The notes under the pieces: generated by a model
Databases searched by the model: none
The model's input: the letters and a program-made list of their open reading frames with translations, nothing else
Told to the model about the DNA's origin: nothing
Position numbers and translations under genes: made by a program
Part shown: in pieces, positions 3,493 to 20,000 of the stretch
Position numbering within the stretch: position 1 is the stretch's first letter
Layout of the letters: each line of letters begins with the position of its first letter
Source of the DNA: an uncultured virus (IMG/VR IMGVR_UViG_3300021400_000153)
Taxonomy: Duplodnaviria > Heunggongvirae > Uroviricota > Caudoviricetes
Direction: 5' to 3' (one strand)
DNA length: 20,000 nt
Virus record (IMG/VR): IMGVR_UViG_3300021400_000153

Positions 3493-3514
3493 TAAGAAAG
3501 GTGGTGAGCGCAGA

Positions 3515-3760
3515 GTGACAAACACAAAGCTACTTCGTGAGATTGTGGACAAAAGCGGTCTGAAGTACAAACACATCGCAGAAAAGATGGGCTTATCCCG
3601 GTTCGGACTCATGAAGAAGATCAGTGGCGAGAACGAGTTTAAGGCCAGTGAGGTCGATAAACTGTGTGAGATTCTCAATATTGATTCGGTAAACGACAGG
3701 ATGGATATTTTTTTTGCCAAAGAGGTAGAAAACGAATCTACCAATGAGGGCGAGGAATGA
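3515..3760 (+). CDS. Cro-like HTH regulator
   Basis: 81 aa, GTG start after AAAGGTGGTG. HTH SGLKYKHIAEKMGLSRFGL...EFKASEV...IFF. First gene of the divergent early operon. Confidence 0.85.
   Translation: MTNTKLLREIVDKSGLKYKHIAEKMGLSRFGLMKKISGENEFKASEVDKLCEILNIDSVNDRMDIFFAKEVENESTNEGEE
3724..3742. promoter_or_regulatory. Distal operator within the 3' end of the cro-like gene
   Basis: Perfect GGTAGA-N7-TCTACC palindrome with the same core as 3474-3492. Confidence 0.7.
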
Positions 3761-4266
3761 ACGAGAAAGACGATGGGCTTGAATATACCTATACGCCTGA
3801 TGCGTATTTCCTTCAGTACCTAGAGGTTGCCTCTACTTGGAATGACGAATATTACAAAAAAGAAATGCTAAAGACCATCAAGTCCTATAGGCAGAAGCAA
3901 TTACAGAACGAAGCAAGGAAGATTAAGAAAAACATTGTCAATGAATCTGGTGTGTGTTCTATTTGCGGTTTCGCATTTCAGCCTATCCTGCAAATTCATC
4001 ACGTTCTTCCAATTAGCCAATGGGGAAACAACAGTGATGGCAATGTGATTTGCGTTTGCCCTAATTGTCACAAGACACTTCATTACCTATATGGGAAGTT
4101 TGGACAAAAAAAGGAAATAAGCCTTAAAAATTTTGAATTCTTCAATCAGCCAACCGCTCTCAAGGAAATGTTAGATACGTGTCTTCGATACATTAAAGGA
4201 CGGTGCGCGGTATATGAATATGCCATGAGTTTTGCACCTTCTGGAATTCCCGGCTTTTGGGAGTAG
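3757..4266 (+). CDS. HNH endonuclease
   Basis: CSICG...LQIHHVLPISQWGNNSDGNVICVCPNCHKTLH zinc-HNH motif. ATGA overlap with cro. Confidence 0.88.
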   Translation: MNEKDDGLEYTYTPDAYFLQYLEVASTWNDEYYKKEMLKTIKSYRQKQLQNEARKIKKNIVNESGVCSICGFAFQPILQIHHVLPISQWGNNSDGNVICVCPNCHKTLHYLYGKFGQKKEISLKNFEFFNQPTALKEMLDTCLRYIKGRCAVYEYAMSFAPSGIPGFWE

Positions 4267-4284
4267 TGAAAGCGAGGCAAAAAA

Positions 4285-5337: not shown

Positions 5338-5861
5338 GTTACGAAGTGAAGAAAGTGGAAGAGACTTCCATCAACAAGGAATACGCAGATATGCTTCAGC
5401 GGCTTATCGAAATTGGGATGATGACCAACAAGAAGGTCGATAACATCGAGCAGGACATGAATACAATGCGGAGCGATCTTGGGACGGTAAGAACCAGAGT
5501 TGACAAGATCGAACGCAACGAGGAAATCACTTACGAACAGCAGAACATGATTAACAGCCTTATCAGCAAGCGTGTGTATCGTGTTCTTGGGCTGAATGAG
5601 AGTCCTACCAGATGGACAGAAGAGGAACAGCTTACATACGCGAAGTACGGAAGAACATTCAGGCGTAGGCTTCGTTCTGAAGTGTCGAACAAAGGTCATC
5701 TGGCGTATCCGTTCAGAACAACGGCGAAGGGTAACTATGATGCGGCTTGCCGAGATATCGAGGCGTGGCAACCCAGAAACGGGATTGACGCATTGAAGGA
5801 AGAAATCGATATGAAAGCACAGGCCAACAGAATCGCGAAAGAACAGGGCTACGAAGTTTAG
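5334..5861 (+). CDS. ORF6C-like domain phage protein (antirepressor-associated family)
   Basis: GTG start with SD GAGGTG. Short coiled coil followed by EEITYEQQNMINSLISKRVYRVLG, which resembles the ORF6C pattern. Confidence 0.55.
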   Translation: MSYEVKKVEETSINKEYADMLQRLIEIGMMTNKKVDNIEQDMNTMRSDLGTVRTRVDKIERNEEITYEQQNMINSLISKRVYRVLGLNESPTRWTEEEQLTYAKYGRTFRRRLRSEVSNKGHLAYPFRTTAKGNYDAACRDIEAWQPRNGIDALKEEIDMKAQANRIAKEQGYEV

Positions 5862-5877
5862 ACAAGGAGGCTGAGAC

Positions 5878-6093
5878 ATGACAAGCCAGGTTCAGATATT
5901 TCTTAACAACATGCTCGATTCCGGGGAAAAGAAGAAGTCCGTGTCAGGGCTGAACTACATCGACTATTTCGGAGAGCAGTTCGTTCATATTGAGAGAAAG
6001 ATGGGGTTCGCTGATGTAAGTATTCCAGTTTTCGACACGGACACATATGACGATATCCGCAAACGGATTGAGTCTCACCCGGCATATTACTGA
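5878..6093 (+). CDS. Hypothetical phage protein
   Basis: 71 aa, perfect SD AAGGAGG, fills the operon gap. Confidence 0.7.
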   Translation: MTSQVQIFLNNMLDSGEKKKSVSGLNYIDYFGEQFVHIERKMGFADVSIPVFDTDTYDDIRKRIESHPAYY

Positions 6094-6101
6094 GGTGAAA
6101 T

Positions 6102-6380
6102 ATGCCGAAAGTAACTGATAAGTATTCTCGCTACAAGGCGAGGACAAGAGAAATTGAAGATGTATTAAAAATTGCTCTTAAGGCAGAGCATCTGACACAG
6201 GCGGCGGCGGCAAAGAAGATCCGTATGGATCAGAGTACGCTGTCGAGAAAACTGAGGAACATTGACAAGTTCACACTAGGGGAGCTGCGAACATTCGCAG
6301 AAGTGGCAGGACTTGAAATCATCATAAGGGGGAAAAGAAGTTATGAAGGGGAACAATTGGAAGGAAAAAAGAAAACTTGA
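6102..6380 (+). CDS. XRE-type HTH DNA-binding protein
   Basis: LTQAAAAKKIRMDQSTLSRKL...FTLGEL; SD GAGGTG. Confidence 0.8.
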   Translation: MPKVTDKYSRYKARTREIEDVLKIALKAEHLTQAAAAKKIRMDQSTLSRKLRNIDKFTLGELRTFAEVAGLEIIIRGKRSYEGEQLEGKKKT

Positions 6381-6561
6381 GTTAATCCGGCACATCAATT
6401 CATTCATGGTTGGCATCGTGCTGATACTCATTATCGGCATGGTCGGCTCATGGGACATCAGGGAAGTAAGACCTGGAGAGATGGAGATTTTCATCGCATC
6501 CACGACTTACATCGTCTTGTACGGAGTGATTGTGCTGAGACGGAGATTTGAAGGAGAGTGA
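6343..6561 (+). CDS. Small membrane protein, two predicted TM helices
   Basis: Hydrophobic stretches FMVGIVLILIIGMVGSW and IFIASTTYIVLYGVIVL; purine-rich SD. Confidence 0.65.
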   Translation: MKGNNWKEKRKLELIRHINSFMVGIVLILIIGMVGSWDIREVRPGEMEIFIASTTYIVLYGVIVLRRRFEGE

Positions 6562-6562
6562 A

Positions 6563-6805
6563 ATGGCGATTTACAAGGGAGAAGACACACCATATGCGAA
6601 GACACAGAAGACGGCAGATACTACGGAACGGATCACAACGCCGGAGTTGACCGTCAACAGATCTCTGGAGGAGATCATCACGCTTTACGCAAAGGCAATT
6701 GACCTGATGGAAAGAATTAGCCAGACGGCAAGAGCGTATTACATGGATGACAAGACGAAAGTCCTTTGGATTAAGGACGCGACTAAGGAATATACGGAGC
6801 AGTAA
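6563..6805 (+). CDS. Hypothetical phage protein
   Basis: Probable ATG at 6563 after AAGGAGAG; 80 aa. Confidence 0.65.
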   Translation: MAIYKGEDTPYAKTQKTADTTERITTPELTVNRSLEEIITLYAKAIDLMERISQTARAYYMDDKTKVLWIKDATKEYTEQ

Positions 6806-6815
6806 TGGTCAACGC

Positions 6816-6909
6816 CATCCGCATAGTTGGTGGCGAGAACAGCTACAAACATTACTAAGCACGAATGCGCTATGCAGATAAGAACATAACAATACAACTT
6901 ATGCGGATG
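6816..6909 (+). ncRNA. Intergenic long-stem/large-loop structured element
   Basis: CATCCGCATAGTTG (6816-6829) pairs with CAACTTATGCGGATG (6895-6909), 14 bp with one bulge, closing an A-rich 65-nt loop with inner hairpin GTGGC/GCTAC. Confidence 0.5.
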
Positions 6910-6928
6910 AGATTAATTAGGAGGTTTC

Positions 6929-8875
6929 ATGTCAACATTATCGTTCAACCATGTTTCCATATCCCAGTTCAAGGGATTTCACGACAGAGAATTTAATCTG
7001 TATCCGCGAACGGATGTCATCGGTGCGAATGGTCGCGGGAAAACCACATTGGGAATGACTCTGGCGTTGCCTTTTACAGGCAAGGATCTTGCCGGACACA
7101 GCAATCCCGAAATCCATCCTGATGATATGCCGGAATCGGAGCCGCACATCACCATCAGCGGAGATATTGACGGCAAGCCCATCGAAATCGAGATGCTTCA
7201 GCGGGATCTTCGGACTAAGAAAGACCGGGCAGAAGATAAGCCGCCAAGGATCGCAAATAAATACAAGATCAATGCGGTCGATAAGTCCGCAAAGGCATTC
7301 GGCGCGGATCTTCTTGAGCGCGGCATCGACATCAGCAAATACGAACAGCTTACGAACCCGAACTGGTTCAATGGGCTGAAAGAAGCTGACAAGCGCAAGG
7401 CCGTATTTGAGATGGTTGGCAACATCACAGACAAGGATGTCGCTGAATCCATCAAGGATGATGTTCCTGATGTTTTAGAGAAACTTGAAAACTACAGGCT
7501 CGATGAAATTGAGTCAATGGCAAAAGCCCAGAAGAAAACGTCCTCTGAAAGACGGGATGCCATCCCGGAGCAGATTATCGGGATGGAAAAGACGAAGATT
7601 GATCTTTCTGACATCCAAGAGTTGAAAGCCAAAGCGCAGAGGCTTGCGGCTCAGATTCAGATAGGGAAGGAGGAATTTAACAAGGTTCCTTCAGTGACTA
7701 AGGAATCAATCCATCCGCAGATCGTGTCTCTGCGGCAGAAACAGAGAAATCTCGTGGCTGATGCCAATTCCGCGATTCATGACGAACTGCGGAAAGCGCA
7801 GAGAACCCTTGACGAGAAGAACCGCCAGTACGAAAGTATAGGCTTTGAGATCGAGACGATTACTTCACGGATTAAGCGGAAAGAGTCGGATATCTCCTAT
7901 CAGAAGGAGCAGCTTCAGAAGAGGCTTGCCGAGTACGAGGAGAAGAAAAACTCCACGTTTCCGGCTGATGAAGAGATTTGTCCGAGATGCGGTCAGAGAC
8001 TTCCGAAGAAGGACATCGCAAAAAAAGCTGAAGATTGGGAGAAGAAAAACGAGTTGGATCTCAAGGCTATGCGCGATGAAGGAAACAAACTTCACTTGAA
8101 GATCAAGTCTCTGGAGTCAGAGGTCGAATCTCTGAAGAAGGAACACGCAGATAAAACTGCGGAACGCGAGTCTCTGGAAAAGGCCGTATCAAAATCGAAG
8201 AAAGCGGTCGATGCGGCTGAGAAAAAGCCATTGGAAGACGGCAACGGCATTCCTGAGTATGTCGAGTGCGACAAGCAGATTGCCGAACTGGAACGGCAGA
8301 TGGAAGACATCGACAGAATTGAAGCGGAAAGAGCCGTGAAGCTGAAGAACCTGGATTCGCTCACTTCAGAACTCGATGATGTCCGCAGAGAACTGACCAA
8401 AGAAGGTTTCAATGCTCATGTGGATGAGCAGATCGCAGAACTGAAGAAGGAACTGCGTGAAGTATCACAGAGTTACTCATCGGCTGAATCAATCCTGTAT
8501 CAGGTTTCTTTGCTGAATAAGCGGAAGAACGAAATGCTGACGGATGCCGTCAATGCGAATTTCCCGGAGTACATTCGTTTCAAGCTGTTCGACACATTAA
8601 AGAACGGTGAACTGAAGGATTGTTGCATCCCGCTCATCAGGAATGAATTTGGAGAGTGGAAGGAACTTGGAAAATCGGCAAATACCGCTCTGGAAATGAG
8701 AGCGAAGATCGCCATTCTCGATGCGTTTCAGCGTTATAACGACATGTATTTGCCGATCGTCATTGACGGCGGTGAATGCCTTGATACTGAGAACAAGATG
8801 AGAATTGATGTGACGGGGCAGCTTATATTCCTGTCGGTTAAGGATAACGCCAATTTGACGGTAACTGAAATTTAA
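6929..8875 (+). CDS. Rad50/SbcC-like SMC-family ATPase (phage recombination module)
   Basis: 648 aa. Walker A GANGRGKTT, long coiled coils with central zinc hook CPRCGQ, Walker B IVIDGGE. SD AGGAGG. Confidence 0.88.
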   Translation: MSTLSFNHVSISQFKGFHDREFNLYPRTDVIGANGRGKTTLGMTLALPFTGKDLAGHSNPEIHPDDMPESEPHITISGDIDGKPIEIEMLQRDLRTKKDRAEDKPPRIANKYKINAVDKSAKAFGADLLERGIDISKYEQLTNPNWFNGLKEADKRKAVFEMVGNITDKDVAESIKDDVPDVLEKLENYRLDEIESMAKAQKKTSSERRDAIPEQIIGMEKTKIDLSDIQELKAKAQRLAAQIQIGKEEFNKVPSVTKESIHPQIVSLRQKQRNLVADANSAIHDELRKAQRTLDEKNRQYESIGFEIETITSRIKRKESDISYQKEQLQKRLAEYEEKKNSTFPADEEICPRCGQRLPKKDIAKKAEDWEKKNELDLKAMRDEGNKLHLKIKSLESEVESLKKEHADKTAERESLEKAVSKSKKAVDAAEKKPLEDGNGIPEYVECDKQIAELERQMEDIDRIEAERAVKLKNLDSLTSELDDVRRELTKEGFNAHVDEQIAELKKELREVSQSYSSAESILYQVSLLNKRKNEMLTDAVNANFPEYIRFKLFDTLKNGELKDCCIPLIRNEFGEWKELGKSANTALEMRAKIAILDAFQRYNDMYLPIVIDGGECLDTENKMRIDVTGQLIFLSVKDNANLTVTEI

Positions 8876-8882
8876 GATTCGT

Positions 8883-9164
8883 AAGTCATCAATCCGAATC
8901 CTCCTCACAGTGCTGATTGTGATTCGACCCCTTACGATAATCCATATGCCATGTGTATCTCACTCATACGGATTGGTGACTTGACATACAAATTGGTCTG
9001 CGGGAACGGCGATCCTCTGAATTTATACCGCGTCAACCTAGGGGATGATTTTAAGTCGGGGCTGACTCCTTTCTTTGTAAGACAGACGGTGGGAAAGACC
9101 ACACAGACTGGTTTGTTAATGAGCATTAAAGTGCGGTCGAAGGCCAAGATCGCCGCCAGTCATT
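8883..9164 (+). ncRNA. Structured non-coding region (multi-domain candidate ncRNA) upstream of the tRNA-like element
   Basis: Stems 8883-8896/8969-8982 (14 bp), 8988-9000/9104-9116 (13 bp) and 9106-9112/9155-9161, plus inner hairpins. G-U pairs only work on the + strand. No credible ORF. Confidence 0.55.
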
Positions 9165-9165
9165 T

Positions 9166-9256
9166 CGGAACGTAGCACAATGGCTAGTGCTTTTGGTGGT
9201 AGAAATGCCGCTTCACCATAACGGCGTTGATGTAGGTTCGAGTCCTACCGTTCCGA
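9166..9256 (+). tRNA. Atypical tRNA / tRNA-like RNA with aberrant anticodon domain (isotype undetermined)
   Basis: Acceptor CGGAACG/CGTTCCG plus A; TA linker; D-arm GCAC-AATGGCTA-GTGC; T-arm GTAGG-TTCGAGT-CCTAC. 41 nt between D and T arms with no canonical 7-nt anticodon loop. CCA not encoded. Confidence 0.8.
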
Positions 9257-9305
9257 TTCGTGTTTTTACATAAACAACACACACCACATGAGAGGAGTAC
9301 ATCGC

Positions 9306-9494
9306 ATGAACAAGATCTCAATTTATTACTGCCGGGAACGCGAGAATTCAAAGGGAAAGAAGGTGCGTTCTGACAGACACAGAGCCACTTACAGGACAGC
9401 AAGTATCAGTGCTGCTTGCAAACGTTTCTACGCATCGCGCCCTGATAACGATTGGTCGATCTATCGGATCGAGGAAGTAAAGGAGCGCGGATGA
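9306..9494 (+). CDS. Hypothetical phage protein
   Basis: Probable ATG at 9306 after GAGGAG; 62 aa; ATGA overlap with the next gene. Confidence 0.65.
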   Translation: MNKISIYYCRERENSKGKKVRSDRHRATYRTASISAACKRFYASRPDNDWSIYRIEEVKERG

Positions 9495-9817
9495 GTGTGA
9501 CTAGGAATCCTTGCAGATACTGTGTGGCGGCGTTTCGCGATAAACGGACTGGACACCATAGACCGAATTTCACGGTGGAATGTCAGTTGTGCGGAAATCG
9601 CAAGGAATATAATCGCCATCTGGAATCCAAACGGATGTTTGAGCCGGGTGATCCAATCACCGAACTGAGCGAATTGCTGAAGCAAGAGTGGGTGATCTGG
9701 CACGGACGGACAAGACACATTGAGATGTTTCGTAGCATGTCCGTGCGGACGGTAGAAGAATTCTTGAAGCATGGAACATTCCGAAAAGCGATAAGGAAGG
9801 AGAATAACGATGGCTGA
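9491..9817 (+). CDS. Hypothetical zinc-binding phage protein
   Basis: ATG at 9491 after AAGGAG; CRYC...CQLC motif; 108 aa. Confidence 0.7.
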   Translation: MSVTRNPCRYCVAAFRDKRTGHHRPNFTVECQLCGNRKEYNRHLESKRMFEPGDPITELSELLKQEWVIWHGRTRHIEMFRSMSVRTVEEFLKHGTFRKAIRKENNDG

Positions 9818-10559
9818 GAACAGCTTCAGCTTGGCACTGACAACAGAATTGGAAAATCAAAGGTCTGCACTTCCGGCAGACTTTAACATCAACAGATTCG
9901 TGCAGAATTCTGTCGCATTGCTTAATGGCAATGACACGCTGATGAAGTTCGCCAGAGAGCATGGCACTTCCCAGATCAAGGCCGGACTTATGCGCGGTGC
10001 ATATCAGGGACTCGATGCCTTAAACGGCGAAATGTATCTCGTTCCATACGGCAGTACACTCAACTTCATGCAGTCCTACAAGGGCGATGTGAAGATGGTG
10101 AAGAAGTACAGTCAGCGCCCCATCAAAGATGTTTACGCAAAACTCGTCAGGGAAGGTGATGAATTTGAAGAGGGTGTGATAAACGGAGAACCTACGATCA
10201 ACTTTAAACCCTTGCCGTTCAATGACGGAAAAATCATTGGGGCATTTGCCGTTTGCCTGTATGTGGACGGCGGCATGGTATACGACACGATGAGCCTTAA
10301 AGATCTTGAAAATACAAGGTCTTCGAGCAAGGCGAAGAATTCCCCCGCCTGGTCAAAATTTACAGGACAAATGTATCTTAAGACGGTTCTTCATCGCCTC
10401 TGCAAGCATCTATCAATCGATATGGACGCAAACGCCAGAGAAGCGTTTGATGCAGGAACGGAAATCGAAACAGATCCGTCTGAGATCGCAAAGTCAGAGA
10501 TCGCCGAGAATGCCAATTCTGAAGAACTTGTAGTGGATGCCGAGGAAGTCATCGAATGA
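9810..10559 (+). CDS. recT: RecT/Redbeta-family single-strand annealing recombinase
   Basis: GLDALNGEMYLVPYG, MQSYKG, VREGDEF, IIGAFAV and PAWSKFTGQMYLKTVLHRLCK match RecT motifs. Confidence 0.92.
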   Translation: MAENSFSLALTTELENQRSALPADFNINRFVQNSVALLNGNDTLMKFAREHGTSQIKAGLMRGAYQGLDALNGEMYLVPYGSTLNFMQSYKGDVKMVKKYSQRPIKDVYAKLVREGDEFEEGVINGEPTINFKPLPFNDGKIIGAFAVCLYVDGGMVYDTMSLKDLENTRSSSKAKNSPAWSKFTGQMYLKTVLHRLCKHLSIDMDANAREAFDAGTEIETDPSEIAKSEIAENANSEELVVDAEEVIE

Positions 10560-11302
10560 AACTAATCACCGTTAATTCAGGATCGTCCGGGAACTGCTAT
10601 TTTCTGCAAGATGACAACGGTCATTACCTGATGCTTGACTGTGGAGAAAAGCTGAAATGGCAGAACGTCTTATGGGGATGTGGCTTCAATATCTTGATGG
10701 TAGACGCAGTGCTGTTTACACACTGGCACAGGGATCATTTGGGAAACGTGAAGAACATTCATCTATCCGGCATCCCTTCGTTTTCCAGTGACGAGGTGGA
10801 GACATTCGTCAGAGAATCGCATGGAGAGATCGTTCGCGGACTCCGTGAAAAGGCGCCCACGAAGCTGCCGGGAAACTGGCAAGTGGTTCCGTGGTATGTG
10901 CCGCACACAGGGAATGATTGCGAGAATGTGCCTTGCTACGCATATTACATCAGGTCGCCGAGCGGTTACAAGTTGGTCTACATCACGGATTTTCTTTATT
11001 CGCCTGTGACTTTTAAGACCTTCAAGGTTAATGGCATTCTGTGTGCATGTAACCATGATGACGATATCGATCTGGAAGAAAACGAGCAGAAATACAGACA
11101 TGTCGTGATGGGGCATTCTTCTCTGTCAACCGTAAATGAGATGATTAAGGTTAACATGACCGATGACATGAGAGACATTATCCTCTGTCATCTATCTGCT
11201 GAAAATGCAACGCCAGACGTGATGATCCATACCATCAAAGATACGGTCGGAGATTCTGTAAACGTCAATATCGCCCGAAAGGGCGTGATATTAAATTTAT
11301 AA
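10556..11302 (+). CDS. Metallo-beta-lactamase-fold hydrolase (likely exonuclease partner of RecT)
   Basis: SGSSGNCY, LDCG, THWHRDH, YITD, CNHD, GHSS and LCHLS motifs. Confidence 0.9.
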   Translation: MKLITVNSGSSGNCYFLQDDNGHYLMLDCGEKLKWQNVLWGCGFNILMVDAVLFTHWHRDHLGNVKNIHLSGIPSFSSDEVETFVRESHGEIVRGLREKAPTKLPGNWQVVPWYVPHTGNDCENVPCYAYYIRSPSGYKLVYITDFLYSPVTFKTFKVNGILCACNHDDDIDLEENEQKYRHVVMGHSSLSTVNEMIKVNMTDDMRDIILCHLSAENATPDVMIHTIKDTVGDSVNVNIARKGVILNL

Positions 11303-11312
11303 CAAGAAGGGA

Positions 11313-11750
11313 GTGGTAATCATTAACTCAGTTTGTATCACGGGGAGACTCACGAGAGATCCCGACATCAAGCATTCAGAAAAAACCACATATGGCTCGT
11401 TTGGGATTGCCGTAAACCGTAACTACAAGAACAATGAGGGAAAGTACGAAACAGACTTTTTTGAAGTTCGCGTATTCGGAAGAAGTGCTGATTTTGTGGA
11501 AAAATACTTTAAGAAGGGCATGAAAGCCGATATTATCGGCAGACTTCAGCAGGAACGGTGGACTGACAGAGACGGAAAAAACCAGAGCGCCACAAGAATT
11601 GTCGCGGATACGGTGGAGTTCGGGGAATCAAAATCCGCATCGGGGCAGAACGGCAGATCGTCCGCGCCGACAGCAGATGTCAACAAAGGCAGTGATGATA
11701 ATTTCATGGCTATCCCGGACGGAATTGACGAAGAACTCCCGTTCAACTGA
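11313..11750 (+). CDS. ssb: Single-stranded DNA-binding protein (true start possibly ATT at 11322)
   Basis: NSVCITGRLTRDP, IAVNR, TDFF, GRLQ and acidic tail DEELPFN. Confidence 0.95.
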   Translation: MVIINSVCITGRLTRDPDIKHSEKTTYGSFGIAVNRNYKNNEGKYETDFFEVRVFGRSADFVEKYFKKGMKADIIGRLQQERWTDRDGKNQSATRIVADTVEFGESKSASGQNGRSSAPTADVNKGSDDNFMAIPDGIDEELPFN

Positions 11751-11751
11751 C

Positions 11752-11994
11752 ATGACGGATGAACAGGGAAGGAAAGTTTACCGCCTAATCGACAAGAACC
11801 TGGCGTTGAATCCAGTGGCATACTGCCGAGTGCATCACGGATACCTTACTAAAGGTTTGATGAAAACTCATCGCTGCATGCAGCGGCAGTGCCGTGGATT
11901 CTCCAAGATTAATTGCCGATATTGGGATGAGAGACGCAAGCGCAAGGAACTGTCAAGACAGAGAAAACACAGGAGGTTGAATGACAGACTTTGA
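11752..11994 (+). CDS. Small Cys/His-rich basic phage protein
   Basis: ATG at 11752, one base after the ssb stop. AYCRVHHGYLT...HRCMQRQC putative zinc site; 80 aa. Confidence 0.6.
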   Translation: MTDEQGRKVYRLIDKNLALNPVAYCRVHHGYLTKGLMKTHRCMQRQCRGFSKINCRYWDERRKRKELSRQRKHRRLNDRL

Positions 11995-12325
11995 AAAGGC
12001 CGTGTCTGAGACACAGGAAGACATGGACATGCAGAGTTATCAATTCGATTATGAAAACGTGATTGAATTCACCAGAAACGCGAAGGTTGCAACTGTTACA
12101 TCCTGTCAGGGAAGGTACGTTACCAAGATTAAAAAATACGCAGAAGAATATCCTGACGATGTGCAGATCACATCCGAGAAGAAGGGAACGATTGTCGCAC
12201 ACGTTCCGACAGATTGGGTGAAAATCTCCCCGCCTAGAAAGGTTAATTTTACGGACGAGCGTAAAAAAGCGAGTATTGAACGCCTCCGCAAGTGGAGAGA
12301 GGAACAGAAATCTGCCGAACACTGA
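11981..12325 (+). CDS. Hypothetical phage protein
   Basis: 114 aa, SD AGGAGG; ENVIEF...ATVT...AHVPTDWVKISPPRK. Confidence 0.75.
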   Translation: MTDFEKAVSETQEDMDMQSYQFDYENVIEFTRNAKVATVTSCQGRYVTKIKKYAEEYPDDVQITSEKKGTIVAHVPTDWVKISPPRKVNFTDERKKASIERLRKWREEQKSAEH

Positions 12326-12436
12326 TTACAGATAAGAAGATCGTGGTCAATTTCGCACGAAAGTACCTTAATAGTACATCCGATAGGGTACGCACTTTAG
12401 ACTGCGCTTAATAACATTTTTACAAAGGGAGTAAGT

Positions 12437-12868
12437 ATGCCGCCTAAATTTATAAATGCAACGGAAATCACCATCGGAGCATTGCCGGATACAGTTGGAA
12501 CAGATCAACCTGTCACATTTAGCACGGAACCTGTTGAGTTCACCGCAACCATTAAAGATCCTTCAAGCGTCAAGGCCGTCAGAAGGTTAATCATGGATAC
12601 GCTTTCCGAGTCAACAAAGATATGTTATACGCCAGAGCATATCTTTCACAACCGCAAGACAGCGGAAACTATCGTCATCTGGAAGGACGGATCTAAAACA
12701 ATCGTAAAACCGATGGACGGAATGCCGGATTCCGAAATGAGTCACTACGCTGCATTTACCGCCGCTCTGGCTAAAAAGATATTCGGCTCAAACACTCAGG
12801 TCAACAAGATAGTCGGAATGACTAGGGAACCTGTGAAAAGGCAGAAGAAAAATGGTAATCCAAATTGA
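12437..12868 (+). CDS. Hypothetical phage protein
   Basis: 143 aa, SD AAGGGAG; C-terminal TIVIWKDGSKTIVK...AALAKKIFG segment. Confidence 0.75.
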   Translation: MPPKFINATEITIGALPDTVGTDQPVTFSTEPVEFTATIKDPSSVKAVRRLIMDTLSESTKICYTPEHIFHNRKTAETIVIWKDGSKTIVKPMDGMPDSEMSHYAAFTAALAKKIFGSNTQVNKIVGMTREPVKRQKKNGNPN

Positions 12869-13364
12869 CACGAGACAGCAGATGAACAAGAAGCACCACA
12901 AAGTCAAGGAGCAATGGTTCATCGATCACGGTCATCAAGTTGTGAAAAGCAAATGTCTTGTCGGAGATTATGTGTGTCCGTCAAACGGATCCGTTTCCGT
13001 GGATACGAAGAAGGATTGTACGGAGTTATATGCCGATCTGATTCAAGACCATGCCAGGTTTCACAATGAGTGCGTTCTCGCAAAGGACTGCGGCATTCGT
13101 CTCGTTATCCTTGTCGAAAATAAGGACGGATTCAAGAAGCCGGAGGACATCATCAAGTGGAAGAATCCGCAGATGTATCGATACTGGAAAGCGAAGCGGA
13201 TAGCCGAGCGTGACCATGTGAAGCCGCCAAAGCCTCCGGCATCAAACGTGCAGCTGTTGAAGATCATGCACTCAATGAGCAGAGACTACGGCGTGGAATT
13301 TATGTTCTGTACAACCGAAGAGGCCGGAGAGAATATTATAAGAATCCTGTCTGGAGAAATTTAG
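12852..13364 (+). CDS. ERCC4/XPF-domain structure-specific nuclease (resolvase-like)
   Basis: IQIDTRQQ, VGDY, SVDTKKD..EL, RLVILVE and YGVEFMFC match phage ERCC4-domain proteins. Confidence 0.75.
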   Translation: MVIQIDTRQQMNKKHHKVKEQWFIDHGHQVVKSKCLVGDYVCPSNGSVSVDTKKDCTELYADLIQDHARFHNECVLAKDCGIRLVILVENKDGFKKPEDIIKWKNPQMYRYWKAKRIAERDHVKPPKPPASNVQLLKIMHSMSRDYGVEFMFCTTEEAGENIIRILSGEI

Positions 13365-13401
13365 TCAAAGTGCTGAAATTTTAGAAATCAGCCGAGGAAC
13401 A

Positions 13402-13429
13402 TTGATTTAAGATAGTTGGGATGTATAAT
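13402..13429 (+). promoter_or_regulatory. Possible internal sigmaA promoter for the replication genes
   Basis: TTGATT (13402-13407), 16-bp spacer, TATAAT (13424-13429). It overlaps an inverted-repeat arm. Confidence 0.4.
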
Positions 13430-13520
13430 TAAAACAACAACATATATCTTTGGCGTATGGCTCAATGTATCTCTAATTCCTATCTGTGTATCTTAGGAGT
13501 TATACGCAATCCCAAATCTT
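13409..13520 (+). ncRNA. Intergenic nested stem-loop with TATC-rich loop
   Basis: Outer AAGAT..TTGGGAT (13409-13422) / ATCCCAAATCTT (13509-13520). Inner GCGTATGGCTC (13453-13463) / GAGTTATACGC (13497-13507) with two G-U pairs. Confidence 0.5.
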
Positions 13521-13556
13521 TTGTTTGAAAATTGAATACTGGAAGGTGGTGAAAGA

Positions 13557-14108
13557 TTGAAAGCAATCGAAACTATCTACAATGGCTATCGGTTTAGGTC
13601 AAGACTTGAAGCGAGATGGGCAGTGTTCTTTGATGCTCTTGGTGTGAAGTACGAGTATGAGCCGGAAGGTTTTGAACTGTCCGATGGAACATGGTATCTA
13701 CCCGACTTTTATCTGCCTGACTTAAAGATATGGGTAGAAGTCAAAGGATTGATGTCTGGTGAAGACTTAAAGAAGATCGATTTATTCCGCAAATGTCTAA
13801 GTGTAGACAGCGGACAATATCTATGGGTTGTTGGGGATATTCCTACTGGCAGTTGGTTCCGTACAGAGGGACTCGCGTATAAGTATGGCGATATCTTCTC
13901 CATAGGCAACGAATTGGTATGGGACGTTGAGTATCTCCCGTGCGTCTGTCCGAAATGCGGAAAGGTTGGAATTGAGTTTGAAGGCCGCGGTGCAAGAGTT
14001 TGCCCCAATCATTGTCCAGAGAGTGACAAGCTATACTCAGCTGATGATCCAAAAGTACTTAACGCCTATAACAAGGCGCGACAAGCACGTTTTGAATACG
14101 GGGAGTAA
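13557..14108 (+). CDS. PD-(D/E)XK restriction-endonuclease-like phage nuclease with Cys cluster
   Basis: TTG start after GGAAGGTGGTG. YNGYRFRSRLEARWAVFFD...YEYEPEGF...YLPDF...WVEVK, then CVCPKC...CPNHC. Confidence 0.75.
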   Translation: MKAIETIYNGYRFRSRLEARWAVFFDALGVKYEYEPEGFELSDGTWYLPDFYLPDLKIWVEVKGLMSGEDLKKIDLFRKCLSVDSGQYLWVVGDIPTGSWFRTEGLAYKYGDIFSIGNELVWDVEYLPCVCPKCGKVGIEFEGRGARVCPNHCPESDKLYSADDPKVLNAYNKARQARFEYGE

Positions 14109-14113
14109 TGATA

Positions 14114-14893
14114 ATGGCTGAAAGAAGAATGTTTGCGAAAACAATAGTTCTGTCAGACGAATTCCTTGATATGCCATTATCGGCAAGATGCCTGTATTTC
14201 ACTCTTGGGATGTTAGCGGACGATGACGGATTTGTGAATAATCCAAAAAGCATTATGCGGCAATGCGGTGCTTCACAAGATGATATGCGAATCTTAATCA
14301 GCAAGCGATTTGTTATCCTGTTCGAGAGCGGAATCATTGTGATTAAGCATTGGAGGATCAATAACTATCTCAGAAGTGACAGATATAGCGAGACTAAATA
14401 CCTTGATGAGAAAACGCATCTTTCGGTCAACGAAAACGGCAGCTATCATCTAAAATCGCAAGATTCTGGTATACCAGGTGGTATACCCAATAACGGTATA
14501 CCCAGTATAGGTAAGGATAGTATAGATAAGGATAGTAATAATATTGGCGATTTTGATGAGGATTTTTCTTGCGATTCTGTCGATTACTCAGATGATAAAA
14601 ATCCGAAAAAGAAGGATGTGGATGAGTTTTTCGCAAAGATCTGGAAAGCATATCCGAAGAAAAAGGGCAAAGGCGCTGTATCCGATGCCAAGAAGAAAAA
14701 ACTGTATGAAGACGTTGGCCTTGATCAGATGCTTAGATGCATCAACAGATACAGTGATTACGTTCGCGGAAAAGACGAACAGTATATCATGTATGGCAGT
14801 TCATTCTTCAACAGTGGATATGTTGACTATCTTGATGAGAACTACGGGAGCGAAGCATCCGCAGACGAAGAAGATGCTCTGCCGTTTAGGTAA
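14114..14893 (+). CDS. Replisome organizer / replication initiator
   Basis: MAERRMFAKTIV..DEFLDMPLSARCLYF.LGM.ADDDGF N-terminus, IVIKHWRINN, internal iteron repeats, and C-terminal IWKAYPKKKGK...YIMYGSSFFN domain. Confidence 0.9.
   Translation: MAERRMFAKTIVLSDEFLDMPLSARCLYFTLGMLADDDGFVNNPKSIMRQCGASQDDMRILISKRFVILFESGIIVIKHWRINNYLRSDRYSETKYLDEKTHLSVNENGSYHLKSQDSGIPGGIPNNGIPSIGKDSIDKDSNNIGDFDEDFSCDSVDYSDDKNPKKKDVDEFFAKIWKAYPKKKGKGAVSDAKKKKLYEDVGLDQMLRCINRYSDYVRGKDEQYIMYGSSFFNSGYVDYLDENYGSEASADEEDALPFR
14466..14545. repeat. Iterons / putative replication origin inside the initiator gene
   Basis: Palindromic GGTATACC three times (14468, 14480, 14495), then the 15-bp repeat AGTATAG(G/A)TAAGGAT twice (14504, 14519) and an AT-rich tail. 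Confidence 0.7.
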
Positions 14894-14899
14894 TGGACA

Positions 14900-16948
14900 A
14901 TGGCTAAACAGTTTTTAGACGAAAATGAAATACGGAAAGCGATATCCATTATCAAGAAAGATTCCGTAACAGGAGTTTTTGAGATCAGGATACTGGAGTC
15001 CGGGCGAAAAGATGCCACGGTCGGATACTTCACTGATGTGGACACGATGCTCGACAAATTGAGGAGGCAGCGTCTACAGGGGAAAAACGTATACATCGTT
15101 CTGAATGAGATTAATAAAGCCTGTTACGCCAAGACAGCAAGAGATGAATTTGTCCCGAAAGCATCATCTACAGGAGATAAAGACATCATTGGCAGATGGT
15201 GGATATTAATTGATTTAGATCCCATCAGGCCGTCTGACACATCATCGTCTGATGAATCAGTTGCGAAAGCAAAAGTCAAGGCTAAACAGGTGTATGACTT
15301 TCTGAAGCAACAAGGCTTTACGGAGCCGCTGATTGGCTTTAGCGGAAATGGATATCATCTCTTATACAGGGTTTGTGTAAAGAACACGGATCAGGTAAAA
15401 GATACGATACAACGCTTTCTCAACACACTGAATGTTCTTTTTACGGATAGCGACACGAAAGTCGATACCGCAAACTTTAATGCGGCTCGTATATGTAAGC
15501 TATACGGAACTTTGGCACAGAAGGGAAGTGATACGGAAGAGTACCCTCACAGGATGAGTAATATCATCAGAGTCCCGCAGGAATTCGCACCAGTGCCAAT
15601 CGAATACATTGATAAGGTAAACCAGATTATACCTGATAAGCCAGATACTCCGCAGAGGTACAACAACTACAACGGCAAGTCTTTTGATCTCGTAGAATGG
15701 ATGAATAAGCACGGAATCCATTATAACCCGATCAAGGTTGGTGACGGCACAAGGTACATACTCGATCACTGTCCATTTAATCATGATCACACTGGGAAAG
15801 ACGCGATGATTTTCCAGAGCAATTCTGGAGCAATCGGATTTCACTGCTTTCATGATTCATGTCAGGACAAGACATGGAAGGACGTGCGGATTCTCTATGA
15901 GCCGGATGCGTATGAGCGCAAGTGGAAACAACAAGACGAAAGGATGTATGGTCATTTCAGAAGGAATGAACCAAAGCCGGAGCCACAGCCGTTAGTCCAA
16001 AAAGAGGGTAACCCGATATGGCTTACGCCGATGGATGTATTCAATGAGCCGAGGAGAGAAGTTCATTATATCAAGACCGGGTACACTGGCGTTGATAGAA
16101 AAATGTACGGACTCAAAAAGAAAGGCCTGTCGGTATTGACAGGATTGAGATCTGCGGGAAAGTCAACGTGGTTAAGCGGTCTGATTCTGAATGTTATCCA
16201 GGACGGCAACATTGTTGGATGCTATTCGGGCGAATTGGATGAACAGGACTTCATGCGTTGGATTATTCAGCAAGCAGCCGGAAAGACAGGGGTTGAACCC
16301 GGTCGGTATGAAGGGCAGTACAATGTGCCATTGCGAAACAGAAAGTTGATAAGTGAGTGGCTACAAGGGAAATTATTCCTGTACAACAACAGCTACGGAA
16401 ACAATTTTCAGCAAATCCTGATTGAGGTCGAGAAAAAAATCAAAAGTGACAAACTCGATTTAGTGGTTCTCGACAACTTGATGGCACTGGACATTGATGG
16501 ACTCGATTACCAGAAACTGGACGCTCAGAAGAAATTCGTCCTGTCACTGAAGAATTTGGCTGTTGCAGAGGATGTCCACATCATGTTTGTAGCGCATCCG
16601 AGAAAAACAGTAAGTTTTCTGCGATTGGAGGATATAAGCGGTTCCGGCGATCTTGCCAATGCTGTTGATAACGCATTCCTGATTCATCGGTGCAATGAAG
16701 ACTTCAAGACGAGAAGTAAGGAAATGTTCAAATGGAAAGATGACCATATCGCATACTCAGGCACAAACGTCATCGAGGTGGCGAAAGACAGAGAGAGCGG
16801 TACACAGGATTGGTTTATACCGATCTGGTATGAAAAAGAATCCAGACGAATGAAAAACAGTATAGCTGAAAATGTCCTGTACGGTTGGCAAGAGGACAAT
16901 GACGGCTTTGTAGATGTTCCAGAAGGAGATGGTATAGACTTCAGATGA
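14900..16948 (+). CDS. Primase-helicase: AEP/PrimPol-like N-domain, Zn-binding domain and SF4 (DnaB/Twinkle-like) helicase
   Basis: WILIDLDP and FSGNGYHLLY (AEP motifs I/II); CPFNHDH...CFHDSC; Walker A GLRSAGKST, VVLDNL, FVAHPRK and DISGSGDL. Confidence 0.85.
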   Translation: MAKQFLDENEIRKAISIIKKDSVTGVFEIRILESGRKDATVGYFTDVDTMLDKLRRQRLQGKNVYIVLNEINKACYAKTARDEFVPKASSTGDKDIIGRWWILIDLDPIRPSDTSSSDESVAKAKVKAKQVYDFLKQQGFTEPLIGFSGNGYHLLYRVCVKNTDQVKDTIQRFLNTLNVLFTDSDTKVDTANFNAARICKLYGTLAQKGSDTEEYPHRMSNIIRVPQEFAPVPIEYIDKVNQIIPDKPDTPQRYNNYNGKSFDLVEWMNKHGIHYNPIKVGDGTRYILDHCPFNHDHTGKDAMIFQSNSGAIGFHCFHDSCQDKTWKDVRILYEPDAYERKWKQQDERMYGHFRRNEPKPEPQPLVQKEGNPIWLTPMDVFNEPRREVHYIKTGYTGVDRKMYGLKKKGLSVLTGLRSAGKSTWLSGLILNVIQDGNIVGCYSGELDEQDFMRWIIQQAAGKTGVEPGRYEGQYNVPLRNRKLISEWLQGKLFLYNNSYGNNFQQILIEVEKKIKSDKLDLVVLDNLMALDIDGLDYQKLDAQKKFVLSLKNLAVAEDVHIMFVAHPRKTVSFLRLEDISGSGDLANAVDNAFLIHRCNEDFKTRSKEMFKWKDDHIAYSGTNVIEVAKDRESGTQDWFIPIWYEKESRRMKNSIAENVLYGWQEDNDGFVDVPEGDGIDFR

Positions 16949-17376
16949 CAGAAAATGAAATCAAGACCTACCAAAGGATCGTCACTGATTACTGGAATCT
17001 TATAAAAAAGCTGATTCCGAAAACTAAAGACGATGCGTTCTGGTCGGAAACGGTCGATGAGTTAGGAAAACTGCAAGCACAACATAAACATAGGTTTTCT
17101 GCGGCATTGAATTACTGCGTTCTCGATGAACTGGACAAGGTGTCAAAGCTGAACGACATGTCTGATGTGAAAATCTACTACAACGTGATGGTGGATTGCG
17201 GGTCAGCCATGAAATATGCGGATGATTTCAAGGCGTTCACGAAGGAACTGAAATCCAGGTTCGGGAAATACAACGGCAACAGATTTGCGATGGCAATTTT
17301 TGACAAGGCACAGGAAGAGTCGGCAAGGCTGACAACTGAGAGAGAGGGTGATGAAAATTTTAAAGGTGAAACTTGA
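16945..17376 (+). CDS. Hypothetical protein built from two similar roughly 70-aa halves
   Basis: 143 aa, ATGA overlap. EIKTYQRIVTD...HRFSAAL versus DVKIYYNVMVD...NRFAMAI. Confidence 0.7.
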   Translation: MTENEIKTYQRIVTDYWNLIKKLIPKTKDDAFWSETVDELGKLQAQHKHRFSAALNYCVLDELDKVSKLNDMSDVKIYYNVMVDCGSAMKYADDFKAFTKELKSRFGKYNGNRFAMAIFDKAQEESARLTTEREGDENFKGET

Positions 17377-17773
17377 TGAAGGGGCGTATAAGCCCGAAAG
17401 AGCCTATAGCACGGATGCCGGATATGATCTGCGTACACCGATAGACTTTACGGTTCCGGCACATGGATCAAGCGTGGTTGACAGCGGCGTTCATGTCCTG
17501 ATTTCAAAGGGATACGTTGGGATGCTGAAAAGTAAATCCGGCTTAAACGTAAAGCACAACATTACAGGCGAAGGAACGGTTGATGCTCATTATGTTGGGG
17601 CAATCAAAGTGAAACTTTTCAATCACGGAGATGATGATTATTCGTTCAAGCGCGGCGATAAAATCATTCAGCTTGTCATCATGCCGATTGCAACGCCGGA
17701 AATCGAAATCGTTGACGAACTGCCCGAAACAGATCGTGGCAGTAACGGCTTCGGATCCACGGGGTATCGATAA
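17351..17773 (+). CDS. dut: Trimeric dUTPase
   Basis: All five motifs present: AGYDL, KSKSG, GTVDAHYVG, IIQLV and RGSNGFGSTG. Exact start uncertain (17348, 17351 or 17357). Confidence 0.95.
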   Translation: MKILKVKLDEGAYKPERAYSTDAGYDLRTPIDFTVPAHGSSVVDSGVHVLISKGYVGMLKSKSGLNVKHNITGEGTVDAHYVGAIKVKLFNHGDDDYSFKRGDKIIQLVIMPIATPEIEIVDELPETDRGSNGFGSTGYR

Positions 17774-17950
17774 ATGAGCGATGCAGAACTCAGATGCTCA
17801 ATAGTCACAATTCTGATGAGTCAGGCAACGATACTGAGGATACTCAGTGGGCTTGTAAGGCAGACCAAAGCAAAGACGATTTTGGACTACGCGAAGGAAC
17901 TGGACAACTTTTCCAACGCGCTGATGATCGACATGGAGGATAACAAATGA
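17774..17950 (+). CDS. Small hypothetical protein (58 aa, not in the supplied ORF track)
   Basis: MSDAELRCSIVTILMSQ...MEDNK. It starts directly after the dut stop and ends in an ATGA overlap with the next gene, so it tiles the gap exactly. Confidence 0.6.
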   Translation: MSDAELRCSIVTILMSQATILRILSGLVRQTKAKTILDYAKELDNFSNALMIDMEDNK

Positions 17951-18159
17951 TATCCGCACACGAGGCACATAAGCTGCTTGTACGAAGCGGATACGAAGTG
18001 TTGATTAACTCCCCATACAAATACCCGGTAGTGTACAACACACCTTTTAAGGACGTGGCTGAATTCCTCCACAGCAACGGATATCAGGGGATGTTCCTGT
18101 GTATTAATGAATTGAAGAGTAAGAAGGGGAAAAAGACGGATGAAAGACCTAATCATTGA
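17947..18159 (+). CDS. Hypothetical phage protein
   Basis: 70 aa, SD GGAGG. Confidence 0.65.
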   Translation: MISAHEAHKLLVRSGYEVLINSPYKYPVVYNTPFKDVAEFLHSNGYQGMFLCINELKSKKGKKTDERPNH

Positions 18160-19558
18160 TTTGTTTGCGGGTGGTGGCGGGGCATCTGTCGGAATAGAAA
18201 TGGCTCTTGGAAGACAGGTAGATATAGCCGTAAACCACGATCCACAGGCAATTCTGATGCACAAGACAAATCATCCGCATACGAAACACATCACAGAAGA
18301 TATCTTTACGGTTGATCTGCAAAAGTACGTTAAAGGCAGAAAAGTCTCTCTGATGTGGGCATCTCCTGATTGCACACAGTTCAGTAAAGCCAAAGGATCG
18401 AAGCCGAGAATCAGCGGGATCCGTTCTCTTCCGTGGGCGGTATACGGACACGCCAAAGCAGTTAAGCCGGAAGTGCTGATAATGGAAAATGTCGAGGAGA
18501 TCCAGGATTGGGGTGCGCTTGATGAAAATGGTTATCCCATCAAGGAAGACAGGGGAAAAGAGTACGAGCGTTTCATCAAATCAATGTGTGACCTTGGCTA
18601 TGAATTCGATTGCCGTGAACTGATTGCCGCTGACTATGGCGCTCCAACGACAAGAAAAAGGTGGTATGCCATCTTCAGACGAGACGGACGAAAAATCGTG
18701 TGGCCTACGCCTACGCATTTCAAGAGCCTAAAGCCAAAATGGAAAGCATGTGGAGACTACATTGATTGGTCAGACCTTGGCACGTCAATTTTCGACAGGA
18801 AAAAGCCCCTCGCGGAAAAGACACAGGCACGGATTGCTTACGGCATAAAGAAATACATTCTGGATAACCCGGATCCGTATGTGGTGAAGGACAACAGAGC
18901 GTTGGCGTTCATGATTCAGTATCACAGCGAACAGAGAAACGGCGAAGCGCGAGGACAGCTTTTGACGGAGCCAATCAAAACGCTCGATACGAGCAACAGA
19001 TATGGGCTTGTAACTGCGTTCATCACAAAGTTTTACAAAACAGGAGTAGGGCAAAGCTGCGAGGAACCGATACACACAATCACAACAAGTCCTGGTCACT
19101 TCGGAGCTGTCACGGCATATCTAGTAAAGTTTTACAGTAATCCAGAGACGAACAATCAGGGGATGGAAAGGCCGCTTGATACAATCACAACCGTAGATAG
19201 GTTCGGACTTGTTTCGGTATTTTTGAACAAATACTACAGTCAAGATAGTTCCGGCATGATTGGAGTGATGGTCGAGATTGACGGGGAGAAATATATAATC
19301 GCAGATATTTTTCTGAGAATGCTGAAGCCGGAGGAATTGAAAGTACTTCAAGGATTCCCAGACGATTACATCATCGACAGAGATTATAAATGGCGTGTTT
19401 ATCCGAAATCAGAACAAGTTGCAAGAATTGGAAATTCAGTAGTCCCTGTGATGGCGAAGACGCTTGTTGAGGCGAACTGCCCATATCTGAAGGTCGGGAA
19501 CAGGCAACCAATACCAAAAACGTATTGGAATTCACAAGGACAAATGGCATTTGCCTGA
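18140..19558 (+). CDS. Orphan C5-cytosine DNA methyltransferase
   Basis: IDLFAGGGG (motif I), ASPDC (IV), MENV (VI), RKRW (VIII), LQGFP and IGNSV. Variable region has EPIKTLDT / EPIHTITT / RPLDTITT repeats. Confidence 0.93.
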   Translation: MKDLIIDLFAGGGGASVGIEMALGRQVDIAVNHDPQAILMHKTNHPHTKHITEDIFTVDLQKYVKGRKVSLMWASPDCTQFSKAKGSKPRISGIRSLPWAVYGHAKAVKPEVLIMENVEEIQDWGALDENGYPIKEDRGKEYERFIKSMCDLGYEFDCRELIAADYGAPTTRKRWYAIFRRDGRKIVWPTPTHFKSLKPKWKACGDYIDWSDLGTSIFDRKKPLAEKTQARIAYGIKKYILDNPDPYVVKDNRALAFMIQYHSEQRNGEARGQLLTEPIKTLDTSNRYGLVTAFITKFYKTGVGQSCEEPIHTITTSPGHFGAVTAYLVKFYSNPETNNQGMERPLDTITTVDRFGLVSVFLNKYYSQDSSGMIGVMVEIDGEKYIIADIFLRMLKPEELKVLQGFPDDYIIDRDYKWRVYPKSEQVARIGNSVVPVMAKTLVEANCPYLKVGNRQPIPKTYWNSQGQMAFA

Positions 19559-19581
19559 TCAAAACATAATAATTCACATCC

Positions 19582-19638
19582 ATCCCGTGGGGAACCGTAT
19601 ATCAAATTCCTATCTGTATCCCTATCGAACCCACGGAT
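19582..19638 (+). ncRNA. Intergenic stem-loop with four TATC motifs in the loop
   Basis: CCGTGGG (19585-19591) / CCCACGG (19630-19636) closes a 38-nt loop that shares AATTCCTATCTGT with the 13475-13487 loop. Confidence 0.5.
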
Positions 19639-19653
19639 ATTCAAAAGGAGAAT

Positions 19654-20000
19654 ATGACAAATACTTACGATTCGGAGTATCAGCGTAAGTATCACCGACA
19701 GCGGAGAGAAATCCTTCTGAAGATGCATATCTGTGTTTACTGCGGCAAAAATGACGCTTGCAAGGGTGAAACCATATGCGTTGAGTGCAAAGAGAAGAAA
19801 CGCGAATACGATGCACAGCGCAAGGAATCAGCCAGTATTAAAGCAAAGGAAAGGCGTGAACGCCTAAAGGCAGAAGGGATATGCGTACAGTGCGGAAAGA
19901 ACAAAGCTGCGTCAGGACATACGCTTTGCTCCACTTGCAAGAGCAAGAACAAGTACAGGATGCGGAGACACCGCAGAAGGAATCATGGCGGCCTGTACAG
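19654..20000 (+). CDS. Basic protein with two CxxC...CxxC zinc-finger repeats (3'-partial, not in the supplied ORF track)
   Basis: ATG at 19654 after AAAAGGAG. MTNTYDSEYQ...ICVYCGKN...ICVEC...GICVQCGKN...LCSTC; frame open to the window end. Confidence 0.8.
   Translation, partial: MTNTYDSEYQRKYHRQRREILLKMHICVYCGKNDACKGETICVECKEKKREYDAQRKESASIKAKERRERLKAEGICVQCGKNKAASGHTLCSTCKSKNKYRMRRHRRRNHGGLY

Follow-up and report, generated by a model that had tools for sequence, protein, structure and literature searches.

A pair of intergenic hairpins with related UAUC-repeat loops in a narrow lineage of ruminant-gut phages

The stretch of DNA analysed here (the window, 20,000 nucleotides of the uncultured Caudoviricetes virus in IMG/VR record IMGVR_UViG_3300021400_000153) contains two intergenic hairpins, S1 and S2, whose stems enclose related loops with repeated UAUC motifs. 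The pair is real and beyond chance, and its members are loop-presenting hairpins. It is also lineage-specific, being confined to a narrow lineage of ruminant-gut phages and matching no described family. The pair is probably regulatory, a plausible role in which the function itself is still a guess, and we tentatively favour the explanation that S1 and S2 are paralogous, cis-acting RNA hairpins that would present their UAUC repeats to a factor. The intergenic signals of temperate phages of gut anaerobes are almost unmapped, and S1 and S2 provide a compact and testable case.

Results

The two hairpins and the two copies of their common 21-mer are located as follows.

13453..13507, + strand: S1 hairpin, arms 13453-13463 and 13497-13507, 11 pairs including 2 G.U
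19585..19636, + strand: S2 hairpin, arms 19585-19591 and 19630-19636, 7 pairs
13467..13487, + strand: S1 copy of the 21-mer, GTATCTCTAATTCCTATCTGT
19597..19617, + strand: S2 copy of the 21-mer, GTATATCAAATTCCTATCTGT

The S1 loop (13464-13496) is 33 nt long with three TATC copies, and the S2 loop (19592-19629) is 38 nt long with four. Both are pyrimidine-rich and carry three to four copies of (G/C)UAUC(U/C) around a common 21-nt core, the TATC copies being spaced 13 and 8 nt apart in S1 and 11, 6 and 6 nt apart in S2. The stems are unlike in sequence, and in an ungapped, motif-anchored alignment read by eye their arms stand at equal offsets from the motif in both hairpins, differing by at most 1 nt. 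In the closest record, G001, a 63,755-bp (63.7 kb) virus contig, the S2 stem has eight pairs. Both hairpins are oriented as the surrounding genes are, and S1 folds better on the + strand (-14.5 kcal/mol) than on the - strand (-7.5 kcal/mol) because its two G.U pairs work on the + strand only. An earlier, sequence-only reading of the window, which first pointed to the two loops, had given their coordinates, the positions of a 13-mer common to both and the TATC counts of three and four, all of them correctly.

That 13-mer, AATTCCTATCTGT, is present in the window only at 13475 and 19605. However, four repeated 13-mers were observed in the window against 5.35 expected from 200 Markov-1 sequences, and 28 of 200 shuffles yielded at least two matches to this 13-mer at no more than 2 mismatches. 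As repeated 13-mers are thus at chance level, the match is no evidence by itself, and the earlier reading was right to allow that it could have arisen by chance. The wider pattern does exceed chance. The two 21-mers are identical at 19 of 21 positions; the window has only three such pairs, where 30 random sequences have 0.1 on average; and S1/S2 is the top local alignment among the 12 intergenic regions, reached by 0 of 2000 pairwise and 1 of 200 family-wise shuffles. The TATC clusters count independently, because the extra copies, one or two per site, fall outside the common 21-mer. Only at S1 and S2 does a 38-nt span of the + strand contain at least three TATC, both in the window and throughout G001, the random expectation for the window being 0.19 triples and 0.01 quadruples (means of 200 sequences).

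The stems were assessed by keeping the motif unpaired, shuffling the 30-nt flanks separately and comparing the pairing across the motif with the observed energy. The enclosing stem was matched by 4 of 2000 flank shuffles at S1 and by 3 of 2000 at S2. The plain fold score of S1 is modest (z -1.93). The earlier reading had spoken of a dispersed family of stem-loops, but each genome, the window and G001 alike, holds exactly two copies. Since no third copy of the motif occurs in either at up to 6 mismatches, the family is properly a pair.

The immediate surroundings of the hairpins comprise the following features.

13402..13429, + strand: promoter ahead of S1, sigma-70-like, TTGATT-16-TATAAT, 10/12 consensus matches
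13557..14108, + strand: first gene after S1, endonuclease-I/resolvase-like, TTG start, opening the replication module
19654..19998, + strand: 5' part of the gene downstream of S2, for a basic protein with repeated CxxC...CxxC zinc ribbons

S1 begins 24 nt past the end of its promoter, and the order there is promoter, stem-loop, Shine-Dalgarno sequence (SD). Both hexamers of the promoter are unchanged in G001 and in the metagenome contig L141, with three spacer positions differing. A transcript start is predicted near 13436, which would place the hairpin at about +17 to +71 of a leader of about 120 nt. S2 lies 27 nt past the stop codon of a methyltransferase gene, and its end is 17 nt short of the start codon that follows. 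No conserved promoter is present at S2, where the window has only a weak ATGGCA-18-AATAAT whose -35 part is replaced in G001. The stems of S1 and S2 are not G+C-rich and are without a U tract, and neither hairpin appeared in a terminator scan of the window.

Half of the window is contained in roughly 20 ruminant-gut runs. Further variants came from contigs of four such runs (X5, X6 and the isolate-like X11 among them) and from L141. Between the window and G001, the alignable blocks are 1-9102 (97%), 9164-12850 (85%), 13277-13544 (93%), 16900-18131 (95%) and 19568-19643 (92%), with nothing alignable between them. Two of these blocks hold the hairpins.

13277..13544, + strand: S1 island, 268 bp, 93% identical to G001, unrelated sequence on either side
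19568..19643, + strand: S2 island, 76 bp, 92% identical to G001, non-homologous DNA on either side

S1 and S2 are thus islands. The replication genes after S1 and the genes before S2 differ between the window and G001; ahead of S2, the window has the methyltransferase gene and G001 has a Mom-like gene and an HNH gene. The right-hand junction of S1 varies, lying near 13544 in G001, at about 13552 in L141 and at 13572 in X11. At S2, the X6 contig aligns from 19568 only, and X11, which combines a window-type left side with a G001-type S2 and right side, switches to the G001-type right flank after 19643. Hence both elements persist while their neighbouring genes are swapped. The AAAACA-rich tract that the sequence-only reading had noted ahead of S2 is not confirmed as part of the element; it falls beyond the edge of the conserved island, and G001 has other sequence in its place. 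Of the further copies on which that reading had made itself depend, orthologous ones exist in relatives and paralogous ones do not.

The S1 island reaches into the preceding gene, encoding an ERCC4-like nuclease. Its last ~29 codons (13277-13364) are near-identical to G001, with the rest of the protein only 44% identical, so that an exchange point lies inside this gene.

Within the hairpins, variation is unevenly distributed. No position of the S1 arms differs in G001, in L141 or in the X5 contig. The X5 copy has loop changes at 13474 and 13494 and flank changes at 13430, 13435, 13438, 13439, 13508 and after 13510. A C-to-A change in S1 shifts the first TATC by 2 nt yet retains one. By a hand tally over the window, G001, L141, X5 and X11, a small set of close relatives, variable positions number 0 of 36 in the stems, 6 of 71 in the loops and 13 of 70 in the flanks (stems versus flanks, Fisher p 0.003).

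The distribution of the pair is very narrow. Pattern scans, exact or degenerate, covered viral contigs, 185,579 species genomes and metagenome contigs. In one scan of viral contigs, none of the matches listed (at least 119 loci) had the flanks of S1 or S2, as read by eye, and in another, one of 13 loci was related and proved to be the S1 of G001. The species genomes gave a single, unrelated match. The four metagenome loci comprised one unrelated sequence, the S1 variant L141 and two places on one contig that is identical to the window. When the two gaps were compared by blastn with 50,697 records of named phages, noise alone was returned. The neighbouring genes led no further. Among 12 loci with an ERCC4-like gene, one was G001, ten had the next gene abutting and one ended at a contig edge, and at none of 12 non-G001 loci with distant homologues of the zinc-ribbon gene did a TATC cluster occur within 260 nt upstream. 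An open reading frame (ORF) at 16945 had one weak genome match, besides G001 and a short contig. Finally, when the whole window was scanned with cmscan, the matches at E up to 1 were a tRNA at 9166-9256, two noise matches elsewhere and nothing more. The loops matched no riboswitch or leader, and no CRISPR or type III toxin-antitoxin repeat, for which the earlier reading had suggested a search.

The genes of the window show it to be the part of a temperate siphophage genome, of the Gram-positive, Firmicutes type, that serves lysogeny, early functions and replication. Its leftward genes are the end of an endolysin gene (19-981), an integrase, an ImmA-like protease and a cI-like repressor, and divergent promoters are predicted near 3390-3470. 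The rightward train runs through HNH, ParB-like, ORF6C, helix-turn-helix and SbcC-like genes, the tRNA and RecT, and then a metallo-hydrolase, SSB and the ERCC4-like nuclease (12852-13364) to the gap that holds S1 (13365-13556). On the 3' side of this gap are the endonuclease-I-like gene, a DnaD-like initiator, a DnaB-like helicase, a dUTPase and the C5 methyltransferase (18140-19558). The gap with S2 (19559-19653) follows, and then a gene running past the end of the window.

That last gene exists as divergent alleles of one family, 29-34% identical between the window and G001. It encodes a lysine- and arginine-rich protein with three to four CxxC...CxxC zinc ribbons; it extends in the window over 19654-19998, continuing at L139 3-503 (- strand), and the G001 allele is at L142 8952-9551. 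Its Pfam DZR_2 match is weak, and its Atlas neighbours are phage 'double zinc ribbon' clusters.

The sequence-only reading had also proposed a hairpin at 8883-8982 as a third member of the group.

8882..8985, + strand: strong hairpin separate from the S1/S2 pair, with arms at about 8882-8902 and 8969-8985

The fold is strong (z -3.27, 0 of 200 shuffles), but the 9-mer that it has in common with the S1 loop is one of seven chance-level matches, and its loop contains one TATC. The hairpin belongs instead to a conserved non-coding stretch (8876-9257; in G001, L157 2585-3140), where it precedes a tRNA that is long and class II-like. By ARAGORN, this is a Thr(GGT) tRNA of 93 nt in the window but a Ser(AGA) tRNA of 91 nt in G001. 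The T-arm changes between the two are compensatory, and the G001 stretch carries insertions of 104 and 69 nt.

Other repeats were observed elsewhere in the window. A second 21-mer pair beyond chance, ATTATGACAC..ATTATGACA with ATTATGACA repeating internally, lies at 981-1001 and 1198-1218, between the end of the endolysin gene and the 3' end of the integrase gene; these are probably integrase arm-type or attachment-site repeats. The third pair, with 2 mismatches, is coding at both places (4184-4204 in the HNH gene and 8588-8608 in the SbcC-like gene). Two 17-bp palindromes of the pattern GTAGA-N7-TCTAC, GTAGAAAATAAATCTAC and GTAGAAAACGAATCTAC, are found at 3475-3491 and 3725-3741. The one at 3475 overlaps the rightward early transcript at its start, and both are likely repressor/Cro operators.

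Discussion

Several observations together lead us to favour RNA hairpins, namely a common exposed sequence, stems that are significant, invariant and unlike each other, G.U pairs that work on the + strand, and the orientation with the genes. S1 and S2 would then act as stem-loops in the rightward early or middle transcripts. Each stem, with near-identical geometry, would keep a loop of 33-38 nt open as a platform on which a trans-acting factor recognises short motifs repeated in single-stranded RNA. The bound factor may set the processing, stability or translation of the following module, that is, of the replication genes after S1 and of the multi-zinc-ribbon gene after S2. Action as RNA, binding of a factor and an effect of binding are all inferred steps, and as a whole we hold this explanation to be possible and the best available, at rather less than even odds. 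The sequence-only reading had proposed a single-stranded ligand presented by interchangeable stems, and this general idea fits the stem tests, the invariant arms and the + strand G.U pairs; the specific roles that it offered are unsupported.

A number of results weigh against this explanation. The plain fold of S2 (-12.65 kcal/mol) is no better than that of shuffles (z +0.29, 116 of 200), the z of the G001 copy being -0.16, and in a 150-nt G001 context the S2 stem is outside the minimum-energy fold. The conservation statistic is based on few, closely related sequences, in which the stems never vary, so that there is no true covariation; no compensation is visible because no stem change exists among the variants. 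In G001, the S2 21-mer has three changes in 21 nt (a 1-nt deletion, also found in X11, and two substitutions) and is the least conserved part of S2, which argues that the S2 motif is not tightly constrained in G001 and X11. More distant phages that share the ERCC4-like or the zinc-ribbon neighbour lack the elements, these match no Rfam family in the cmscan described above, and no candidate factor for the UAUC loops was found in the phage.

Some more specific roles were considered and rejected. Both motifs lie in short frames that open from the same column of the alignment (ATG at 13457, GTG at 19587), with no SD before either, but the S2 frame is lost through the 1-nt deletion of G001 and X11, and a leader peptide is therefore rejected. 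A seed for a small RNA, as the earlier reading had suggested, would call for a partner, and in the window no complementary partner on either strand formed duplexes with the loops better than those of 10 shuffled loops each. Between the loop and the SD that follows, eight pairs can form in the S1 of G001 but, by our own reading, only four to five elsewhere, which is inconsistent. A 25-aa hydrophobic ORF antisense to S1 is kept in G001; it has no credible promoter or SD spacing and no counterpart at S2.

It is unlikely, yet deserves more weight than the other alternatives, that S1 and S2 are double-stranded DNA sites whose TATC/GATA repeats are bound by a phage or host DNA-binding protein. The sites could form a roadblock past the S1 promoter that silences the replication module in the lysogen, as mycobacteriophage stoperators do, or they could be bound by the adjacent multi-zinc-ribbon protein. 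The motif is short-repeated, clustered, asymmetric, intergenic and oriented with transcription at both places, and S1 lies about 30-50 nt past a site that resembles a strong promoter and that a prophage would have to silence. The gene after S2 is always a basic zinc-ribbon gene, and stoperators set a precedent for oriented intergenic sites (PMC9283540). What DNA sites leave unexplained are the significant inverted repeats of unlike sequence that enclose both motifs, and the fact that the arms are the most conserved part. Furthermore, the TATC spacings are without helical phasing, the motif bears no relation to the operator-like GTAGA-N7-TCTAC palindromes at the immunity promoters, each genome has just two copies, and the 12 distant zinc-ribbon homologues are without an upstream TATC cluster.

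The island structure raises the alternative that S1 and S2 are junction linkers, cassettes kept as modules are exchanged at their edges and requiring no reader of the loop. Both are 92-93% identical islands (268 and 76 bp) between unrelated flanks. The S2 edges at 19568 and 19643 recur independently in X6 and X11, and the right edge of S1 varies between 13544 and 13572. With its promoter, stem-loop and SD, S1 is also arranged like the promoter-early stem-loops (PeSLs), which are described as cassettes at points of insertion, deletion and replacement (PMC2839356; PMC4122927). However, junctions are equally frequent at gene boundaries without an element, such as the loose ends at 14113 and 14504-14543 seen in all four runs, which weakens the case for S1 and S2 as special points of recombination. 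A credible, conserved promoter is lacking at S2, neither stem has the G+C-richness or the U tract of a terminator, and there are two copies as against the ~50 PeSLs per genome. The 21-mer likeness and the TATC clustering would remain unexplained as well. We regard junction linkers as improbable.

No more probable than junction linkers is a functionless relic, in which duplication or gene conversion carried a short patch from one intergenic region to another within one lineage, the hairpins being incidental. It would account for the distribution, limited to near-identical relatives in the viral, genome and metagenome scans and lacking in phages with the same neighbouring genes, and for the decayed S2 motif of G001 and X11 and the unremarkable plain z-score of the S2 fold. 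It would not account for two independent enclosing stems (each at p of about 0.002), for extra TATC copies outside the 21-mer at both sites, for invariant stems next to variable flanks, or for the retention of both elements though both neighbours were replaced.

S1 and S2 might instead act as single-stranded DNA, with + strand hairpins extruded during replication or recombination as a priming site or as a site for a structure- or sequence-specific nuclease. The hairpin evidence would be the same as for RNA, the elements bracket the replication and DNA-modification region, and the phage encodes several nucleases (HNH, ParB-like, ERCC4-like and endonuclease-I-like), with several nuclease genes in the conserved part of its genome. 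Nevertheless, the origins are likely iterons inside the initiator genes, which also led us to reject S1 and S2 as replication origins. Each initiator gene has iterons of its own, GGTATACC three times in the window (14465-14545), followed by AAGGATAGT twice and an AT-rich run, and ACAGATA three times in G001 (L142 4140-4200). The two initiators differ over their N-terminal 70 residues, aligning only from residue 71, whereas S1 and S2 are the same in both phages. Loops of 33-38 nt on 7-11 pairs would presumably extrude poorly from duplex DNA, and no HUH-type nicking enzyme is among the gene annotations of the window. We consider this alternative very unlikely. At 14113 and at 14504-14543, breaks or switches are seen in many metagenome contigs.

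Least likely of all, a long shot, is that the loops are operators of the multi-zinc-ribbon protein encoded after S2, with one ribbon per UAUC (or per GATA on DNA), by which the protein would stop or time both its own production (S2) and that of the replication module (S1); if true, the protein would be a modular reader of short single-stranded nucleic-acid repeats, of a kind undescribed in phages.

Returning to the RNA hairpins that we favour, the same exposed repeat motif fronts the replication genes and a gene of nucleic-acid-binding type, and it is retained through the exchange of neighbours. A factor that reads the UAUC repeats would amount to a new switch for this phage group, post-transcriptional or of the roadblock type; without such binding, the pair would be an example of small regulatory cassettes surviving mosaic exchange. 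Either way, the narrow distribution limits the wider reach.

Comparison with known systems

The antitermination sites nut (boxA/boxB) of lambda and put of HK022 are similar to S1 and S2 in that there are two per genome in the sense of early transcription, one of them close behind a promoter, and in that the exposed part of an RNA hairpin is conserved. Unlike the 5-nt loop of nut, those of S1 and S2 have 33-38 nt with repeats, and neither element is behind the immunity promoters at about 3390-3470. The window has a single + strand terminator-like site (2883), and G001 has two weak ones downstream. Antitermination, which the sequence-only reading had also suggested, is set aside because no convincing + strand intrinsic terminators are predicted downstream on which it could act. 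Repetitive extragenic palindromic (REP) and bacterial interspersed mosaic (BIME) elements are likewise hairpin-forming repeats between genes. However, in REP elements the stems are conserved and the copies are many, as opposed to two copies with different stems and a common loop.

PeSLs are cassettes of T4-type phages, present in about 50 copies per genome (PMC2839356; see also PMC4122927). S1 resembles them as a cassette of stop codon, sigma-70-like promoter, stem-loop and SD, the stems of both kinds contain G.T pairs, and S1 and S2 sit where close relatives have genes inserted, deleted or replaced. As to a promoter, S1 has TTGATT-16-TATAAT (10/12, hexamers conserved), and S2 only the weak ATGGCA-18-AATAAT. 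Unlike PeSLs, which are concentrated in many copies in hyperplastic regions, there are two copies here, in a temperate siphophage of a Gram-positive-type host, with stems of 7-11 pairs, loops of 33-38 nt and no terminator features. In addition, the conserved part here is the loop, not the promoter.

Stoperators are numerous short, asymmetric, oriented double-stranded DNA sites that match the repressor operator (PMC9283540). S1 and S2 are also short, asymmetric, intergenic and oriented with transcription, in a temperate phage. They differ in being two sites, unlike the palindromes at 3475 and 3725, and in that each is enclosed by a stem.

The TRAP protein reads GAG/UAG repeats and CsrA reads GGA in loops, and we know of no reader that matches the UAUC motif. 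It is to the targets of these two proteins that S1 and S2 are alike in design, with several copies of a 3-5 nt motif, loosely spaced, in single-stranded RNA near a ribosome-binding site.

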